Shown here in pieces: positions 20,734 through 60,182 of a DNA stretch of 64,000 nt. The stretch is from Candidatus Moraniibacteriota bacterium (GTDB lineage Bacteria > Patescibacteriota > Minisyncoccia > Moranbacterales > DUUL01), in contig JALVDV010000001.1 of assembly GCA_027008775.1 (NCBI GenBank), positions 3,889 to 67,888 on the forward strand, read 5' to 3'. Position numbers and translations under genes: made by a program. Under the pieces are notes generated by a model, which was not told where the DNA came from, made no database searches, and was given only the letters and a program-made list of their open reading frames with translations. The stretch's first letter is position 1, and every line of letters starts with the position of its first letter.

Positions 20734-20852
20734 CTATAAAAATAATGTTTGTAGATAGTCAGCCTCCGCCACAGTTAAAATAAAATAAAAATTAATTTAA
20801 ATTCAAACGTTGGGCAATCAAGTTGGTATTGCCGACGGGAGAATCCAAAGTT

Positions 20853-21263
20853 ATGCGAAAAATAGTACCATTTGATCCTTTTAAAGAAGTCCCGGCTGTT
20901 TGGGGAGAAGAGTTTTTTGGTAATGTCGGCTTACCGGCGGTGGATGTTTACCAAAAAGGAGACGATGTCATCGTGGAAATGGAAGTGCCGGGAATCAAAA
21001 AGGACGACATTGACATTTCGGTGGAAAATGATGTTCTAACTGTCTCCGCGCGAAAGAGAGAGAAGAAGGAAGTTAAAAAAGAGGATTACTACCATAAAGA
21101 AATTCGGGAAGGTTCTTTCTCTCGCAGTGTTATTTTACCAATGAAAGTGAAAGGGGAAGAGGCTGAAGCGGAGATTAAAAATGGCGTTTTAAGAATCGTT
21201 CTTCCCAAGGCCGATGAGTTAAAACCCAAGAAAATCGCTATCAAAAGCAAGAAAGAAGAATAA
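20853..21263 (+). CDS. Hsp20/alpha-crystallin family small heat-shock protein
   Basis: Alpha-crystallin domain (VDVYQKGDDVIVEMEVPGIKKDDIDISVENDVLTVSA...GVLRIVLPK). ATG at 20853; the ORF-track start 20823 is GTT. Confidence 0.9.
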   Translation: MRKIVPFDPFKEVPAVWGEEFFGNVGLPAVDVYQKGDDVIVEMEVPGIKKDDIDISVENDVLTVSARKREKKEVKKEDYYHKEIREGSFSRSVILPMKVKGEEAEAEIKNGVLRIVLPKADELKPKKIAIKSKKEE

Positions 21264-21269
21264 GAAAGT

Positions 21270-21301
21270 TGGGCCAAGAACAACTTGGCCCGGCTGCCGG
21301 G
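21270..21301 (+). terminator. GC-rich hairpin(s) after hsp20 (weak terminator/attenuator)
   Basis: gggccaag/cttggccc and gcccgg-ctg-ccgggc stems; the T-tail is weak. Confidence 0.35.
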
Positions 21302-21399
21302 CTGTTAAAACAAGATGAAAATTTTGGCGGTCCGGTTGCCTTGAGCAACACCAAAACAAAACTTTGGTTTAAACAATAAATATTAAAAAATAAAAAACT

Positions 21400-23364
21400 A
21401 TGTCAAAAGTTTTAGGAATTGATCTCGGTACCACCAACTCCGCTATGGCGGTAGTCAGAGGTGGAAAGCCGGAAATTATAGAAAATAAAGAAGGCAGTCG
21501 CACCACGCCTTCTATGGTGGCGGTCAACAAGAACGGGGAAAGATTGGTTGGTCTGTTGGCCAAGCGACAAGCGGTAACCAATCCGGAGAATACCATTTTT
21601 TCCGCCAAAAGATTGATTGGACGCAAGTATTCCGATCCGGAAGTGCAAGAAGCCAAGAAAACTTTGCCCTTCAAAATTGTGGAAGGCAAGAATGGCGCTG
21701 TGCATGTGGTGATGGGAGGGAAGGAGTATCGCCCGGCGGAAATTTCAGCTATGATTTTACAAAAACTGAAAAATGACGCCGAGGAGAAATTGGGCGAAAA
21801 AATTGAAAAAGCCGTTATTACCGTTCCTGCCTATTTTGACGACTCACAAAGAAAAGCCACCAAAGACGCCGGCCGGATTGCCGGTCTGGAAGTGGAGAGA
21901 ATTATCAACGAACCAACAGCCGCCGCTTTAGCCTACGGTTTTGATAAAAAGAAAGATGAAAAAATAGTCGTTTACGACTTGGGCGGTGGGACCTTTGATG
22001 TTTCCGTTCTGGAAGTTTCCGAGGATACGGTGGAAGTAAAATCAACCAGTGGAGATACTTACTTGGGTGGAGATGATTTTGACAAAAAAATCATTGATTG
22101 GATTATTGAAGAATTCAAAAAACAAGAAGGTATTGATTTATCTAAAGACAATCTTGCTTTGCAAAGAATTAAAGAATCAGCCGAAAAAGCCAAAATTGAG
22201 TTGTCCACCGCTCAAGAAACGGAAATCAATCAACCATTCATCACTTCCGGCGAAGATGGCCCTAAACATTTGGTTTTGAAATTAACCCGGGCCAAACTGG
22301 AAGAGTTGGTTAGCGACCTGGTTGATAAAACGATGATTCCCGTTGAAAAGGCACTGAAGTCTGCTGGTTTGAAGAAAGAGGATGTCAACGAAATTATTAT
22401 GGTTGGTGGAATGACCAGGATGCCGTTAATTCTTAGAAGGGTGGAAGAATTTTTTGGCAAAAAGCCTTCCACCAGCGTTAACCCGGATGAAGTGGTTGCC
22501 TTGGGCGCCGCCATCCAAGGAGCGGTTTTGCAAGGAGATGTTAAAGACGTTCTTCTTTTGGATGTTACTCCTCTAACTCTTGGTATTGAGACTTTGGGTG
22601 GAGTAATGACTCCATTGATAGAGGCTAACACGACCATCCCCACCAAGAAAACACAAATATTTTCTACAGCGGCTGACAATCAGCCCTCGGTGGAAATTCA
22701 CGTTTTGCAGGGAGAAAGAAAAATGGCGGCCGACAACAAAACCCTGGGTAGATTTATGTTGGACAATATTCCGCCGGCTCCTCGCGGAGTGCCACAGATT
22801 GAAGTTACTTTTGACTTGGATGCCAACGGTATTTTGAATGTTACTGCCAAAGATAAAGCCACCGGTAAAGAGCAAAGCATTCGTATTGAAGCTTCTTCCG
22901 ATTTAACCGAAGAAGAAGTTGAAAGGATGAAAAAAGAAGCGGAAGCTCACGCCGAAGAAGATAAAAAGAAAGCGGAAAAAGTGACCATCAGAAACACCGC
23001 CGATGCTTTGGTCTTCAGCACAGAAAAAGCTCTCAAGGAGGCCGGCGACAAAGTCAGCGCCGAAGAAAAGAAGCCGGTAGAGGAAAAACTGGAAGCTTTG
23101 AAAAAACTTCTCAAGGATGAGAAAGCTTCAATTGAAGATATCAAAAAAGCCTCCGAGGAGTTATCAACGGCCGCGCAGGCTATCGGTGAAAAACTTTACA
23201 AAGCGGCGCAAGAAAACAAGCAAGCTCAAGCTGGTACCGCCGATAATCAAAAACAAGAAAAAACCGATAACAAAGAAGAAGGTTCAGTTAAAGATGCTGA
23301 AGAAGTAAAAGAAGATCAGGAAAAGAAAGGGGAAGACAAAGATGATGAAAGCAAGGAAAAGTAG
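21400..23364 (+). CDS. dnaK: Molecular chaperone DnaK (Hsp70)
   Basis: [28 protein letters not shown]-terminal lid and EEVD-less acidic tail. Confidence 0.97.
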
Positions 23365-34271: not shown

Positions 34272-34628
34272 ATGGAAAAAAGTGTGTTAAAAAAGAAGGC
34301 AGATAAATTAGCACATCTTGGCTATGACTTAACTTTTAAATTTCCGAAAAATGAATTGTTTTGCTTGACATCCCAAGTTAGGAGAGCTCTTCTGTCTGTT
34401 CCGTCTAATATAGTTGAAGGGTATTCTAGAAATAAAAAGAAAGTGTTTGTTAATCATTTAGAAATAGCGTATGGTTCTTTAGCTGAAGCAAAATACCAAA
34501 TGAATTTTGCCTGTAAAAGAAATTATATACCCAAACGAGACTATTTGAAATTTCATGCTTTAGCCGAAGAAGTCAGTAAAATGTTGTGGGCGAGCATAAA
34601 TACATTAACAAAAGTTAAAAGTAATTAG
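34272..34628 (+). CDS. Four-helix-bundle protein (23S rRNA IVS protein family), second copy
   Basis: RRALLSVPSNIVEGYSR...E signature. Shine-Dalgarno AAGGAGG upstream. Flanked by short ATCAGTG/CACTGAT inverted repeats. Confidence 0.85.
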   Translation: MEKSVLKKKADKLAHLGYDLTFKFPKNELFCLTSQVRRALLSVPSNIVEGYSRNKKKVFVNHLEIAYGSLAEAKYQMNFACKRNYIPKRDYLKFHALAEEVSKMLWASINTLTKVKSN

Positions 34629-40893: not shown

Positions 40894-41019
40894 GTTATCA
40901 ACAGTTTTTTGTTTGACAAAAATTTTTTTCCGAGTACACTAAAGGGTGTTAAAATATCTAGTGGGGGAAACATTAGTCAAACCACTAGATATTGTGTTTT
41001 ATAGCTAAAAATTGTTAAA

Positions 41020-41460
41020 ATGCTTTGTCCCTACTGCGACTATCCGGAAACAAAAGTTTTGGATTCTCGCAAATTGCAAAATGGTCGGGTCATCAGACGG
41101 CGTCGGGAGTGCCTGCATTGCCGGCAACGTTTTTCCACCAAAGAAAGCATTCAAATTCTCCAGCTGACCGTTATTAAGAGAAACGGGGACAAAGAAGAGT
41201 ATCGTCCGGAAAAAATAAAACAAAGTTTATCCATTGCCACTAACAAAAGACTGAAAAAACATCAGTTGGATGATCTAATCAGGAAGGTGGAGGGAGAGAT
41301 TTTTGCTAAGGGCAAAAAACAAATTGAAAGTAAAAAAATTGGCGAAATTATTTTGCGTCGTTTGCAAAAAATGGATGAGGTCTCCTATCTGCGCTACGCT
41401 TCGGTTTTTAAATCTTTCGGTAGTGGACGCCGATTTGTCAAAGAGGTTGGCAAAATCTGA
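41020..41460 (+). CDS. nrdR: Transcriptional repressor NrdR
   Basis: Zn ribbon MLCPYCDYPETKVLDSR...CLHCRQRFST plus ATP-cone. Confidence 0.93.
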   Translation: MLCPYCDYPETKVLDSRKLQNGRVIRRRRECLHCRQRFSTKESIQILQLTVIKRNGDKEEYRPEKIKQSLSIATNKRLKKHQLDDLIRKVEGEIFAKGKKQIESKKIGEIILRRLQKMDEVSYLRYASVFKSFGSGRRFVKEVGKI

Positions 41461-43595
41461 TGATTGACGATTTCTTAAATAAACAAAAGGTAAAAAATAA
41501 AGTTTTTACACAAACAAAAATGAAAAAAGACAACCCAAAGAAAAGACAGCGAGTGATTAGTAAACACAAAAACATCACTAAACGCAACGGGGATGTAGTC
41601 CCTTTTCGTCAGGGAAAAATCACCGAAGCGGTTTACAAAGCCTTCAAAGAAACGGGAGAGGGCGGCATCAAAGAAGCCCGTCGGGTTTCTCAAAGAGTTG
41701 TTCGCTTGCTCAATCAGAATTTTAAAAACGAATTGCCCAGCGTGGAAGAAATCCAAGATCGGGTGGAAAAAGCTCTGATTAAGATGGGATTTGCCGAGAC
41801 AGCCAAAGCCTATATTCTTTACCGAGAAAACCGCCGCAAAATCAGAGACACGGAAGCCTCCTTGAAAGACGCTGTCGCTTTGGTGAACAACTATCTTAGC
41901 GAGGCCGACTGGCAAGTTAAAGAAAATTCCAATATGGCCTATTCTTTGCAAGGTCTCAACAATTACATTTCCTCCATCGTCAGCGGCAAATATTGGATGG
42001 ATCAAGTTTATAATAAAAAAATAAAAAGAGCTCACGAAGAGGGCGATCTTCATATTCATGATTTGGATAAAATCTCCGCCTACTGTTGCGGTTGGGACTT
42101 GCAAGATCTTCTAACTCGCGGTTTCACCGGTGTCCCCGGCAAAATTTCCTGCGCTCCACCCAAACATTTTAAAACCGCCTTGGGACAAATAGTTAACTTT
42201 TTCTACACCACCCAGGGGGAAGCGGCCGGCGCCCAAGCTTTTTCCAATTTTGACACTTTGTTGGCTCCCTTTATCGCCTACGACAAACTGAACTACAAAG
42301 AAGTTAAACAGGCTATGCAGGAATTTATCTACAATCTCAACGTTCCCACCCGTGTCGGCTTTCAAACTCCCTTTACTAACTTGACCATGGATTTACAGGT
42401 GCCAAAGAACTATCGCGAGCAAAACGTTATTGTCGGCGGAGAAGTTAAATCCAAAAAATACAAAGATTTCCAAAAGGAAATGAATATGTTAAACAAAGCA
42501 TTTTTGGAGGTTATGAGCGAAGGTGACGCCAGTGGACGAGTTTTCACTTTTCCCATTCCCACTTACAACATAGACAAAGATTTTAATTGGGACGACAAGG
42601 AGTTAGATCCCCTTTGGGAAATGACTGCCAAATACGGCATTCCTTATTTTGCCAACTTCGTTAACTCCGATATGAATCCCGATGATGCCCGCAGTATGTG
42701 TTGTCGGCTTAGATTGGATAACCGTGAACTTCACAAGCGAATGGGGGGATTGTTTGGCGCCGCCCCTTTGACCGGCTCCATCGGTGTAGTAACTATTAAC
42801 CTACCTCGCATCGGTTATCTGGCCCGTAACAAAAAAGATTATTTTCAAAGACTGGATAAGTTAATGGACATAGCCAAGGAAAGTTTGGAAATCAAAAGAG
42901 AAGTAGTGGAAAATCTTACTCGCAAAGGACTTTATCCCTACTCTCGTTTCTATATGGATACCATCTTCAAAAAAAGAGGCGCCTACTGGGCTAATCATTT
43001 CTCCACTATCGGCCTAATCGGTATGAATGAAAGTATCCTGAACTTTATGGGAGAAACCACCGCCAGCAAAAAAGGTGTAGCTTTTGCCGAGGAAGTTTTG
43101 GAACATATGCGTGACAAAATGATTGAATACCAAGAAGAAACCGGCAATCTTTATAATCTGGAAGCCACTCCCGGAGAAGGAACTTCCTATCGTCTGGCCC
43201 TCAAAGATCAAAAACGCTTTCCTCGCATTGTTTTTGCCAATCAAGAAGCAGTGGAAAAAGAAGGAGCCGCCCCTTATTACACCAATTCCTCCCAATTACC
43301 GGTCGGTTTCACCGATGATATTTTTGAAGCCTTGGATTTACAAGACAATTTGCAAACAAAATACACTGGGGGAACGGTTTTGCACGGTTTTTTGGGAGAA
43401 AGAATCAACGATCCGCAAATTGCCAAAGAACTGGTTAAAAAAATTACCACCAACTATCGCCTGCCTTACTTCACCCTGACCCCCACCTTCAGTATTTGTC
43501 CCATCCATGGCTACTTAGAGGGAGAGCACAAGGTTTGCCCCAAATGTGTAGCCGAAGCGGAACGAGTTAAACCGCAAAAAATTACCATAGAATGA
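41460..43595 (+). CDS. nrdD: Anaerobic ribonucleoside-triphosphate reductase (class III) large/catalytic part, ending right after the Zn site without a glycyl-radical loop
   Basis: N-terminal ATP-cone (KRNGDVVPFRQGKITEAV), SMCCRLRLD core, C-terminal CPIHGYLEGEHKVCPKC Zn site, then a stop 14 aa later. Confidence 0.85.
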   Translation: MIDDFLNKQKVKNKVFTQTKMKKDNPKKRQRVISKHKNITKRNGDVVPFRQGKITEAVYKAFKETGEGGIKEARRVSQRVVRLLNQNFKNELPSVEEIQDRVEKALIKMGFAETAKAYILYRENRRKIRDTEASLKDAVALVNNYLSEADWQVKENSNMAYSLQGLNNYISSIVSGKYWMDQVYNKKIKRAHEEGDLHIHDLDKISAYCCGWDLQDLLTRGFTGVPGKISCAPPKHFKTALGQIVNFFYTTQGEAAGAQAFSNFDTLLAPFIAYDKLNYKEVKQAMQEFIYNLNVPTRVGFQTPFTNLTMDLQVPKNYREQNVIVGGEVKSKKYKDFQKEMNMLNKAFLEVMSEGDASGRVFTFPIPTYNIDKDFNWDDKELDPLWEMTAKYGIPYFANFVNSDMNPDDARSMCCRLRLDNRELHKRMGGLFGAAPLTGSIGVVTINLPRIGYLARNKKDYFQRLDKLMDIAKESLEIKREVVENLTRKGLYPYSRFYMDTIFKKRGAYWANHFSTIGLIGMNESILNFMGETTASKKGVAFAEEVLEHMRDKMIEYQEETGNLYNLEATPGEGTSYRLALKDQKRFPRIVFANQEAVEKEGAAPYYTNSSQLPVGFTDDIFEALDLQDNLQTKYTGGTVLHGFLGERINDPQIAKELVKKITTNYRLPYFTLTPTFSICPIHGYLEGEHKVCPKCVAEAERVKPQKITIE

Positions 43596-43667
43596 TTTCT
43601 AAGGGAAATCGCCTTTTCTCAAACAAGAAATAAAATTTAAAAAAATAATAATTAAAAACAAAAAAAA

Positions 43668-43949
43668 ATGAAAACCAAACAAAAAATTGTTTGTCACGAC
43701 TGCGGACGAGAATTGAAAGAAGGAGAAGAAGCGGTTATTTACAATTTGGAGGAAAAGGGGACTTTCTACAAATGCGCTGACTGTTACGCTAAAAATGAAA
43801 ATCTGACCAACTTTCAACCTTGTGAAGTCTACTCTCGCATTGTCGGCTACATTCGCCCCATAGATCAATGGAATGAAGGTAAACGAGCCGAATACGCCGA
43901 TCGCCAAGAATTTGTCGCCAATGTTGAAGGTTGTCGCACCGGTTGTTAA
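43668..43949 (+). CDS. Stand-alone NrdD C-terminal module: Zn ribbon plus glycyl-radical motif
   Basis: CHDCG...CADCY (C-x2-C-x23-C-x2-C), then glycyl-radical-type SRIVGYIRP and NrdD-tail-like WNEGKRAEYADRQEF. Own ATG 72 nt after the nrdD stop. Confidence 0.65.
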   Translation: MKTKQKIVCHDCGRELKEGEEAVIYNLEEKGTFYKCADCYAKNENLTNFQPCEVYSRIVGYIRPIDQWNEGKRAEYADRQEFVANVEGCRTGC

Positions 43950-43987: not shown

Positions 43988-44008
43988 GACGGCTAAGCCG
44001 TTTTTTGT
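43988..44008 (+). terminator. Rho-independent terminator after the nrdD locus
   Basis: acggc-taa-gccg-tttttt. Confidence 0.55.
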
Positions 44009-44108
44009 TGCATTAAAGCTGTCTCGCAAAAAAATAAGAATTTGTCTATTTCTTCCTAAAGTGTTAGAATGTAGAAGCTTAAGTTTAAAAAATAAAAAAA
44101 CAAAAACC

Positions 44109-45431
44109 ATGAATGATTTCCTAAAAAAAATTTCTCTTCCCTTTATTTTTTTATTAACCCTGTCTCTTTTTCTTGTCGCTTCACCAAATAACAAAACTGT
44201 CCTGGCCGTTAGTGTTGGCGAGAAAGAAGCAGTGCAAAAATTTATTAAAGAAAACAGCAAAGACCTTTTTAATTTACCATCTGACAAAGTTAAAATAAAA
44301 GACATCCAAGATGATAATGGTCTCCTAAAAGTCACCTTGGATTTAAACGGCGAAGAGCAAACATTCTATCTAACCAAGTCCCTGAAAATTGTTTCTCAGT
44401 TTATTGATTTGGCCAAAATCAGCAAGGGTAAGCTAAAACAAATCGGTCAAAGCAATGGTCAAAAACAAATAACTATCAACGAAGAAACCAAAAAACAAAT
44501 CAAAAACTTTATTGAAAAATATTTACTCTCTCAAAAAGTTCCCGTAGAAATAAAAAGCGTCACCGTCAAAGATGGTCTTTATTATTTAGACATTTCTTTA
44601 GCCGGACAATCTCAGCCGTTATATCTTAGTCTCAACGGACGCAAGTTGGCCTTTGGTGTCATTACTCTGGATGAATACAAAAAAATTGTAGCCGCCAATA
44701 AAAAACAAACAGCGGTCAGTCCCGAAAAAAAGACCGACAGACCGAAGGTTGAACTGTTTGTTATGAGTTACTGTCCCTACGGCACTCAAATAGAAAAGGG
44801 AATTTTGCCGGTCTTAGATTTACTCAAGGGGAAAATAGACGCCCAAATTAAATTTGTTGATTACGCTATGCATGGCAAAAAGGAGCTAGATGAAAATCTT
44901 AGACAGCACTGCTTGCAGAAACAATCCCCGGAAAAATTCACCGACTATCTGAAGTGTTTTTTGGAAGAGGGTAATGCTAAAAAGTGTTTAGCGGAAATTA
45001 AACTAAATGAAAAAGATAAAACTCCCACTTCCTGGTTCCAAAAAGTAATTAATTGGTTTAAATCTCTTTTCCATCTTGGTAAATCGGAAAATGGACAAGC
45101 CGAATTGGAGCAATGTATCCGGGAGACTGACAAACAATTTACCGTCAGCAAAGATTACAATGACAAAAGCACTTGGAACGGACGTTTTCCCGGTTTTAAA
45201 ATAGATCGAGAGGATAATAAAAAGTATAACGTTCAGGGTTCACCCACCTTAATTATCAACGGCGAAAGAATAACCACCGGTCGCGATCCTCAAAGCCTCC
45301 TTAAAGCTATTTGTAGCGGCTTTAAAAATCCTCCCAAAGAATGTCAAACTAAACTTTCCAATCAAACTCCCAGTCCCGGCTTTGGTAATCAAGCCGCCAC
45401 TGCCGGCAGTGGCGGAGGTTGCGGACAGTAA
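44109..45431 (+). CDS. Secreted thioredoxin-fold (DsbA-like) thiol-disulfide oxidoreductase with two N-terminal repeated domains
   Basis: Signal peptide (ISLPFIFLLTLSLFLVASP), internal ~60-aa duplication, CPYG active site (VMSYCPYGTQ), GSPTLIING motif. Confidence 0.55.
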   Translation: MNDFLKKISLPFIFLLTLSLFLVASPNNKTVLAVSVGEKEAVQKFIKENSKDLFNLPSDKVKIKDIQDDNGLLKVTLDLNGEEQTFYLTKSLKIVSQFIDLAKISKGKLKQIGQSNGQKQITINEETKKQIKNFIEKYLLSQKVPVEIKSVTVKDGLYYLDISLAGQSQPLYLSLNGRKLAFGVITLDEYKKIVAANKKQTAVSPEKKTDRPKVELFVMSYCPYGTQIEKGILPVLDLLKGKIDAQIKFVDYAMHGKKELDENLRQHCLQKQSPEKFTDYLKCFLEEGNAKKCLAEIKLNEKDKTPTSWFQKVINWFKSLFHLGKSENGQAELEQCIRETDKQFTVSKDYNDKSTWNGRFPGFKIDREDNKKYNVQGSPTLIINGERITTGRDPQSLLKAICSGFKNPPKECQTKLSNQTPSPGFGNQAATAGSGGGCGQ

Positions 45432-59864: not shown

Positions 59865-60182
59865 ATGCCTATTGAACTAACCGATGCTAATTTCACGGAA
59901 GAAGTAATTAATGAAAAAGAAAAACCGGTCTTGGTTGATTTTTGGGCTCCCTGGTGCGGACCCTGCCAAATGATGGGACCGATTATTGAAGAAGTGGCCA
60001 AAGAGGCCGGAGACTTTGCCAAGGTTGGAAAATTAAATGTGGATGAAAACCCCAACACGGCCGGACAATACGGCATTATGTCTATTCCAACTTTGATTAT
60101 TTTCAAAAACGGACAACCGGCCAAACAGTTGGTGGGAGTTCAATCCAAGGAAGCTTTATTGGCCGAACTGAAAAACGTTTAG
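59865..60182 (+). CDS. trxA: Thioredoxin
   Basis: WAPWCGPC active site. Confidence 0.93.

Follow-up and report, generated by a model that had tools for sequence, protein, structure and literature searches.

Within a 64,000-nt stretch of the genome of a Candidatus Moraniibacteriota bacterium (contig JALVDV010000001.1, positions 3,889 to 67,888, forward strand; hereafter the window), a gene for NrdD, the class III ribonucleotide reductase (RNR), lacks the C-terminal glycyl-radical domain (GRD), and a separate gene downstream encodes a 93-aa protein with a domain of that type. We consider it likely that the pair constitutes a two-gene class III RNR, in which NrdD would be the catalytic subunit and the 93-aa protein a trans-acting radical subunit. 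The small protein belongs to an unannotated NrdD-type family distributed among the candidate phyla radiation (CPR), Desulfobacterota, anaerobic methanotrophic (ANME) archaea and viruses, for which the best-supported family-wide role would be that of a spare part for class III RNR, in the manner of GrcA/YfiD. Somewhat less firmly, we favour the broader proposal that this family represents the first spare part for an enzyme other than pyruvate formate-lyase (PFL), that class III RNR has become a two-subunit enzyme with a dissociable and disposable radical subunit in several lineages, including that of the window, and that viruses carry the module alone to keep the host RNR in service or to put it there.

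Class III RNR makes all DNA precursors in strict anaerobes, and NrdD, like other glycyl-radical enzymes, is cleaved irreversibly by O2 at its radical Gly. To our knowledge, PFL is the only glycyl-radical enzyme with a known repair protein. GrcA/YfiD and Y06I of phage T4 rescue O2-cleaved PFL (PMC8683613), and the existence of spare parts for other glycyl-radical enzymes was put as an open question in reviews of 2021 (PMC8683613) and June 2026 (PMC13450708). The literature searched, with subscription-only papers outside its scope, described no NrdD-type spare part or detached radical domain.

The two open reading frames and their domains

The two open reading frames (ORFs) form one operon with the regulator gene nrdR (nrdR 41020-41460, nrdD large ORF 41460-43595, small ORF 43668-43949), and the layout is as a previous sequence-only reading of this locus had described it, with a 711-aa NrdD, a 72-nt A-rich spacer and a 93-aa ORF starting at its own ATG. 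The elements on which the argument depends are as follows:

41460-43595, + strand: nrdD, catalytic subunit without glycyl-radical domain, 711 aa counted from 41460; matches positions 1-531 of 562 of NRDD
41571-41837, + strand: ATP-cone (allosteric activity site), residues 38-126; PF03477, E=5.8e-22
42699-42704, + strand: finger-loop Cys414-Cys415 (NPDDARSMCCRLRL), invariant across relatives
43497-43547, + strand: resident Zn site, C680, H683, C693 and C696 (CPIHGYLEGEHKVCPKC), read directly
43548-43595, + strand: 15-residue tail VAEAERVKPQKITIE and TGA; relatives carry EQKxEVYSRVVGYIRP... in that place (aligned C-termini)
43596-43667, + strand: A-rich intergenic spacer of 72 nt, with a second in-frame stop, TAA, inside
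43668-43949, + strand: small ORF, autonomous NrdD-type glycyl-radical protein ("class A"), 93 aa, ATG start; matches positions 510-562 of 562 of NRDD
43692-43784, + strand: Zn ribbon of the small protein, C9-H-D-C12 ... C36-A-D-C39
43809-43913, + strand: core of the glycyl-radical domain, residues 48-82 (FQPCEVYSRIVGYIRPIDQWNEGKRAEYADRQEF); predicted radical site Gly60 at nt 43845-43847
43932-43946, + strand: C-terminal Cys pair, C89-R-T-G-C93

The large ORF was recognized as NrdD by Pfam NRDD (PF13597; E=2.8e-185, 617.7 bits against a cutoff of 26.2), by NCBIfam PRK08270 (NF006126; positions 3-654 of 684, 1049.5 bits, cutoff 548) and by TIGR02487 (543.6 bits, cutoff 326.35). Its residues 413-419 read MCCRLRL, and one of Cys414 and Cys415 is presumed, by reference to published NrdD structures, to be the thiyl-radical cysteine. 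The nrdR stop overlaps the ATG at 41460. The true start of nrdD is probably the ATG at 41520, giving 691 aa, since gene callers picked that ATG and, in a 95%-identical strain, a stop lies upstream of Met21.

Towards the C-terminus, the Zn motif C680-x2-H683-x9-C693-x2-C696 is shared with all full-length relatives, in which it directly precedes the radical domain. In the window, the protein ends 15 residues after the last Cys of this site, a slight correction to the 14 counted previously, and no RxxG[YF] follows the Zn site, so that the radical-loop motif of an NrdD is absent from this polypeptide. The 'HGY' in ICPIHGYL was considered as a radical loop and rejected, as full-length relatives have CPxHGY plus a downstream EVYSRVVGY (e.g., CPTHGYLSGEHFNCPKCAITQPCEVYSRIVGYIRP). 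Of 147 columns outside the GRD that are invariant in 38 full-length NrdDs, 146 are kept by the large ORF, and every other loss falls within the radical domain.

The small ORF matches the part of the models that the large one leaves uncovered (Pfam NRDD positions 510-562 of 562, E=5.7e-12; TIGR02487 positions 529-580 of 581), and on this alignment it would be the C-terminus missing from the large ORF; a radical Gly within the large ORF, the outcome that would have undone the idea of a split, was not found. NRDD was its only significant match, with no hit to PF01228 (Gly_radical, the PFL C-terminus) at E<=1. Its motifs run C9-x2-C12-x23-C36-x2-C39 and then YSRIVG60Y; positions C9, D11, C12, C36 and C39 are invariant in alignment A2, and E53, V54, Y55, R57, G60, Y61, R63, P64, K72, E75 and R79 in alignments A1 and A2. 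An AlphaFold 2 model gave block-mean predicted local distance difference test (pLDDT) values of 85-94 over residues 11-50. Searched against PDB by fold, the model found only generic Zn-ribbon ribosomal proteins, all at E>0.02, which is uninformative on the radical domain, and phmmer against PDB sequences reached the C-terminus of Prevotella copri NrdD only at E=1.3, not significant alone.

As for the C-terminal Cys pair, many CPR relatives of the small protein end in CC, CxC or CxxC, and the C-R-T-G-C end is reminiscent of the redox-shuttle Cys pair at the C-termini of class I and II RNRs. A family-wide redox tail was nevertheless rejected, as only 15 of 116 class A members have such a pair, which makes it a subclade trait.

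Integrity of the arrangement

Assemblies from ENA, NCBI, JGI and Logan contain this 93-aa protein, 100% identical, on 12 contigs, in every case behind the same nrdR-nrdD pair, and since these assemblies are independent, the arrangement is not an assembly artefact. An error of sequencing or assembly, or a programmed read-through or frameshift yielding one fused polypeptide, is effectively refuted. The small ORF does lie in the frame of the large one in the window (43668-41460 = 2208 = 3 x 736), as recoding would have it; however, a read-through is excluded because TGA and TAA intervene and the spacer measures 70 nt, with several substitutions, in the 95%-identical sister strain, where the frame relation is not conserved. 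Spacers between GRD-less nrdD and small gene likewise vary in length and frame among other relatives. In addition, with its Zn module duplicated, the pair lacks collinearity with a single NrdD, which bears out the earlier contention that a double Zn site speaks against a simple frameshift.

Both ORFs are under purifying selection: the comparison with the 95%-identical strain gave 99 synonymous against 4 non-synonymous codon differences for the large ORF and 2 against 0 for the small one (10 against 2 for nrdR). These numbers bear on a further reading, in which both genes are decaying pseudogenes, nrdD having been inactivated and the small ORF being a remaining fragment. The loss of the defining domain and the lack of a nearby nrdG would suit such decay; the codon ratios, the near-complete retention of invariant core residues, the small ORF having its own start, its own Zn ribbon and a conserved family, and an arrangement conserved over a clade of 70-100% identity all speak against it, and we regard it as highly improbable.

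Almost no credence is given to the idea that a mobile element, whether a group I intron, an intein or a homing endonuclease, caused the split in the way known from nrdD, nrdA and nrdB of phages. Such split RNR genes are well documented, and some NrdD homologues of the clade carry inteins (P0202, P0209). Against this, a scan of the 72-nt spacer found no ORF, no + strand promoter-like site and no hairpin, the large ORF has no intein or homing endonuclease domain, and the small ORF is not a collinear continuation of the large one; it belongs to a separate family whose members also stand beside intact NrdDs.

A family of small NrdD-type radical proteins

A word-indexed search with the small protein returned 43 relatives, all of 51-128 aa. 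A profile built from 21 of them was then run against 1.84 billion cluster representatives, resulting in 4070 matches at E<=1e-3 and 544 at E<=1e-10, of which the best 150 were all of 42-211 aa. The family is defined by a Zn ribbon plus an NrdD-type glycyl-radical domain, most members having about 80-160 aa. In the class A architecture, the Zn ribbon (CHDC ... KCxxC) is followed by L-T-N-F-Q-P-C-E-V-Y-S-R-I/V-V-G-Y-I-R-P-x-x-Q-W-N-x-G-K-x-x-E-F/Y-x-x-R, and of 192 small sequences only one, a fragment, lacks the radical Gly. No dedicated model for the family exists in Pfam, NCBIfam or PHROGs: members match only the tail of NrdD models, below whole-protein cut-offs, and in PHROGs only the C-terminal end of the NrdD phrog was matched.

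Two observations made in passing concern related architectures. In a deltaproteobacterial metagenome-assembled genome (MAG; L037:8990-10264, loci being cited by their L numbers), the Zn-ribbon and radical-domain module forms the C-terminus of a 424-aa ORF delimited by its first start codon, which is either a fusion or an over-extended call. A different split class III RNR, here class B, was seen at L007:5901-8897 and also at L058, L060, L061, L063, L072, L075, L091 and L092, in Saccharibacteria, Dojkabacteria, Gammaproteobacteria and Bacteroidota MAGs; its large subunit, which takes a basal place in the NrdD tree, has a conserved CPxCDxEIGYxE tail at its end and is followed, after anything from a 4-nt overlap to a 180-nt gap, by a 45-92-aa radical-loop-only protein without Zn ribbon, and then by nrdG.

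Genomic settings in cells and viruses

The locus survey covered 80 loci, one genome per species, plus further look-ups, and a small gene was called solitary where no NrdD lay within 10 kb. At 11 loci (L015, L018, L019, L023, L026, L030, L032, L033, L038, L041 and L043) the small gene accompanies a full-length NrdD with its own EVYSRVVGY, and in 10 of these NrdG is also present. The split seen in the window, GRD-less NrdD plus small gene, was counted at eight genome loci and at 3 more from further look-ups; besides the window it is seen at L014, L016, L017, L021, L024, L029 and L031, and later at L176, L177 and L178; nrdG is directly downstream at L017, L021, L024, L031 and L178.

Solitary small genes account for 25 of the 80 genome loci and for two look-up loci (L010 and L011). 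Among CPR, 7 of the 9 solitary genes examined lie in oxidative-stress cassettes with a Fur-family regulator, rubrerythrin, Fe/Mn superoxide dismutase or hemerythrin:

L022: Fur-family regulator, small gene, rubrerythrin
L025 and L027: small gene, rubrerythrin
L036: Fur, small gene, Fe/Mn superoxide dismutase
L040: Fur, small gene
L034: small gene, hemerythrin
L010: Fur, small gene, hemerythrin

Near the solitary copies in Desulfobacterales and in an ANME-1 archaeon no functional hint was found, the neighbours being housekeeping genes or a DNA methylase.

The viral set consisted of the best 80 IMG/VR loci with 10 kb on either side. Among these, 39 carry a solitary class A gene, 34 a solitary Zn-less mini version and only 7 a full-length NrdD; a profile search found no other NrdD core within the 10 kb on either side, and NrdG occurs only beside two of the full-length genes. 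One carrier, L106, is a tailed phage with tail sheath, tube and tape-measure genes. In the 38.5-kb record of the archaeal virus ANMV-1 (L174), a 144-aa class A gene bears the label 'anaerobic ribonucleoside triphosphate reductase', and an NrdD core is absent; the same record has at 20823-21485 a 'gp37/gp68' ORF with CxxxCxxC, possibly a radical-SAM-like (S-adenosylmethionine) enzyme, not NrdG-like by BLAST. Methanobacterium virus PhiF1, a candidate carrier from the phage GenBank search, was rejected, as it has an ordinary full-length NrdD, which left ANMV-1 as the one informative record of that search.

Decay of the resident radical domain

The 120 closest NrdD homologues (>=70% identity) comprise 82 full-length and 37-38 truncated forms, the latter with graded remnants of the resident domain at their C-termini. 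The remnants, which grade from near-intact to unrecognisable, include EQGCEVYSQIVS, KIYSKIVGVDENK, EQSSTVYLKVVMAD and DQGEKEYLKSDR, each closed by a stop, EQKTEVFLKVGEEEL.., the window's own VAEAERVKPQKITIE before its stop, and ends such as ..TVYLKVVMAD and ..EVYSQIVS, also followed by stops. At L178:6040-6270, NrdD ends in ..EQSCEVHLA and two stops, and the rest of the resident GRD lies out of frame with an internal stop (SSSCVVGYLCPTS, stop, WNTGKAEEYANRKEFVT). This relic and the radical domain of the intact small gene next to it are almost identical, and the resident domain of L178 is freshly inactivated.

In a neighbour-joining tree of NrdD cores, the truncated forms fall within a Moranbacteria-like clade (99% bootstrap), mixed among full-length forms accompanied by the small gene. 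The window belongs to a clade with 100% support (Y), in which L014 and L016 are truncated, L026, L032, L033 and L041 are full-length with a small gene, and L084 and L086 are unsplit, and a second truncated group, L017/L031/L021 (99%), stands outside clade Y among other full-length forms with the small gene. Since two separately supported truncated groups are nested in this tree, the resident domain was lost on at least two occasions, on each of them from a lineage already having the small gene; the differing remnants agree with independent decay. The GRD-less arrangement has been kept across the clade at 70-100% identity.

In the eleven operons with a full-length NrdD, identity between resident and small-protein GRDs is 84% inside an operon and 73% across operons (permutation p<1e-4), and therefore the two track the same partners. 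This likeness points to gene conversion, or else to the two having adapted together to the same barrel and activase, and argues that resident and small-protein GRDs are interchangeable.

Much longer NrdD homologues (1007-2553 aa) were also noted in the clade at L057, L065, L083, L075, L091 and L172; P0202 and P0209, of 1027 aa, contain the intein-type Pfam domains PF14528 and PF14890, including within a truncated NrdD.

Proposed mechanism and its alternatives

In the mechanism that we propose for the window, a radical-SAM activase of NrdG type, with its gene elsewhere in the genome, would abstract a hydrogen from Gly60 of the small protein, the radical loop of which would dock inside the large subunit's barrel, at the place that the resident C-terminus takes in a usual NrdD, and there generate the thiyl radical on Cys414 or Cys415. 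The Zn ribbon of the small protein would probably replace the structural and activase-recognition role of the loop-adjacent Zn site, and after oxygen damage the 93-residue protein alone would need remaking. In evolutionary terms, the small protein may have begun as an NrdD-specific counterpart of GrcA/YfiD, replacing the oxygen-cleaved radical domain, and would still serve as such next to full-length NrdDs, within oxidative-stress cassettes and among viruses; in the Moranbacteria-like lineage, the redundant resident domain would then have decayed, turning the spare part into an obligatory, cheaply replaceable radical subunit. A two-piece NrdD and an NrdD-specific spare part, which the sequence-only reading had offered as alternatives, both hold as two stages of this one path, the spare-part configuration being that of the 11 full-length loci.

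Several points weigh against this proposal. As already noticed from the sequence, the 64-kb window holds no nrdG, neither as an ORF of >=80 aa with CxxxCxxC nor as a tblastn match to an NrdG, and none lies within 10 kb beyond its right end. The genome is incomplete, with 64 kb plus 10 kb inspected, and it may conceivably have, elsewhere, an additional NrdD of full length or an RNR of another class. The large subunit retains its own Zn site beside the second Zn module of the small protein, and the AlphaFold 2 model is uncertain exactly at the radical loop, with a block-mean pLDDT of ~55 for residues 51-60. Radical formation on Gly60 and a complex of large and small proteins are steps that we infer; the neighbour-joining tree is simple, and some loci of the permutation test are closely related to each other.

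The incompleteness of the genome leaves room for the small protein being only a spare part here too, with a full-length NrdD elsewhere and the GRD-less ORF a second paralogue served occasionally or never; the occurrence of the family beside full-length NrdDs and as solitary genes would fit. However, no second NrdD or GRD was found in the window, the large ORF occupies the canonical nrdR-nrdD position under strong purifying selection with its catalytic core intact, and the GRD-less arrangement is fixed throughout a clade of 80-100% identity. CPR genomes are small and rarely duplicate RNRs, which also counts against a second paralogue, and we regard this explanation as unlikely.

Less probable still is a small protein that delivers no radical to NrdD, and instead regulates NrdG, acts as its decoy or serves a different glycyl-radical enzyme. 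In its favour, viral copies could in principle titrate a host activase. Conversely, the radical domain is of NrdD type (Pfam NRDD) with no PF01228 match, it varies together with the NrdD domain resident in the same operon, and every truncated-NrdD locus checked has a small gene. A decoy or a part for another enzyme is further disfavoured because it leaves the purifying selection on the truncated NrdD unexplained, for which a trans-acting radical donor is needed.

A trans-acting radical subunit, if true, would account for the way in which CPR bacteria, genome-reduced and exposed to oxygen, maintain a working RNR that is oxygen-labile, and would constitute both a route from a single-chain radical enzyme to a two-subunit one and a new viral auxiliary gene. 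It would also fix a systematic annotation gap, as the small genes are now called 'hypothetical' or mislabelled as whole reductases. The locus and its relatives provide clonable candidates for a class III RNR spare part, with 'before' (full-length plus spare) and 'after' (truncated plus obligatory subunit) operons, by which the stated question on spare parts for enzymes other than PFL becomes directly testable, and they expose a large unannotated family that includes viral members.

Regulatory elements and neighbouring genes

The remaining features of the operon are the following:

40913-40940, + strand: promoter-like site TTGACA-16-TACACT, 10/12 promoter match, upstream of nrdR
~40949-40965 and ~40982-40997, + strand: two NrdR-box-like palindromes between the promoter-like site and nrdR
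41020-41460, + strand: nrdR, transcriptional repressor of RNR genes, 146 aa; Zn_ribbon_NrdR plus ATP-cone, TIGR00244 140 bits (cutoff 124.65)
43989-44010: terminator-like hairpin ACGGC-TAA-GCCGT (from the - strand scan) and then TTTTTTG (T-run read on the + strand), closing the nrdR-nrdD-small operon

One NrdR-box-like element, CCACTAGATATTGTGT, has 2 mismatches to the NrdR-box consensus, with 0.5 such sites expected by chance per window; the other, an inverted copy read directly, is TTAAAATATCTAGTGGG, and the two repeats are ~32 bp apart. Together with the promoter-like site, these inverted repeats suggest autoregulation of the operon.

Directly downstream of the small ORF, 44061-45431 encodes a protein of 456 aa, whose N-terminus shows by eye a hydrophobic segment resembling a signal and which has a faint match of Thioredoxin_4/DsbA-like type, and a gene similar to it lies upstream of nrdD at L007. 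A 105-aa cytosolic thioredoxin is encoded at ~59865-60182, 16 kb downstream of the small ORF; the MCC finger loop of the large ORF resembles that of thioredoxin-dependent NrdDs. At 34272-34628, the genes for ATP synthase beta and epsilon are separated by an inserted 118-aa gene of the 23S_rRNA_IVP/bAvd four-helix-bundle type.

Comparison with known systems

What is new here is that the autonomous glycyl-radical protein is one for class III RNR; it has a Zn ribbon of its own, is predicted to be obligatory in the window, and comes from a family that is apparently undescribed. Its closest counterparts are GrcA/YfiD from Escherichia coli and T4's Y06I, each likewise a small stand-alone glycyl-radical domain copied from the C-terminus of a large enzyme; the likeness extends to carriage by both cells and viruses, to the genomic association with oxygen-stress genes, and to a presumed activation by the enzyme's own activase with docking in trans. 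Unlike GrcA/YfiD, the small protein is homologous to the C-terminus of NrdD (Pfam NRDD) and not to that of PFL, being an analogue and not a family member, and its N-terminal half is a predicted folded Zn ribbon where YfiD has a disordered N-terminus. Furthermore, GrcA/YfiD plays a back-up role, whereas in the window the resident domain is gone and the small protein would be obligatory.

With canonical single-chain NrdDs (T4, E. coli, Thermotoga maritima, P. copri), the large ORF shares the ATP-cone, the barrel, the finger-loop Cys pair and the Zn site, and every element of the canonical enzyme is present in the large and small ORFs combined. The difference is that the loop of the window lies on a separate polypeptide with a second Zn module, and that a 15-residue tail replaces the resident loop.

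Other RNRs in pieces are the split class II NrdJa/NrdJb of Pseudomonas aeruginosa and Thermus phage phiYS40, in which the C-terminal piece also carries a Zn-finger module (PMC9669993), and the NrdA of Aeromonas phage Aeh1, which are likewise encoded by two adjacent genes whose products must assemble. Those cases are collinear fissions, caused in Aeh1 by a homing endonuclease, whereas the small gene of the window belongs to an independent family pre-existing beside intact enzymes; here the split would have arisen by decay of the resident copy, and the separate piece would carry the radical cofactor itself. Although nrdD is the RNR gene most often interrupted in phages (PMC3653736), the window differs from genes split by mobile elements in having no intervening element and in the overlap of its halves, the Zn module being duplicated.

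Class I RNR also divides catalysis and radical storage between two proteins, NrdA and NrdB, a functional analogy only, without homology. In NrdB the radical arises from a metal site and O2 and is then passed on over a long distance. In the window, by contrast, the glycyl radical would presumably be installed by a radical-SAM activase and act inside the barrel.

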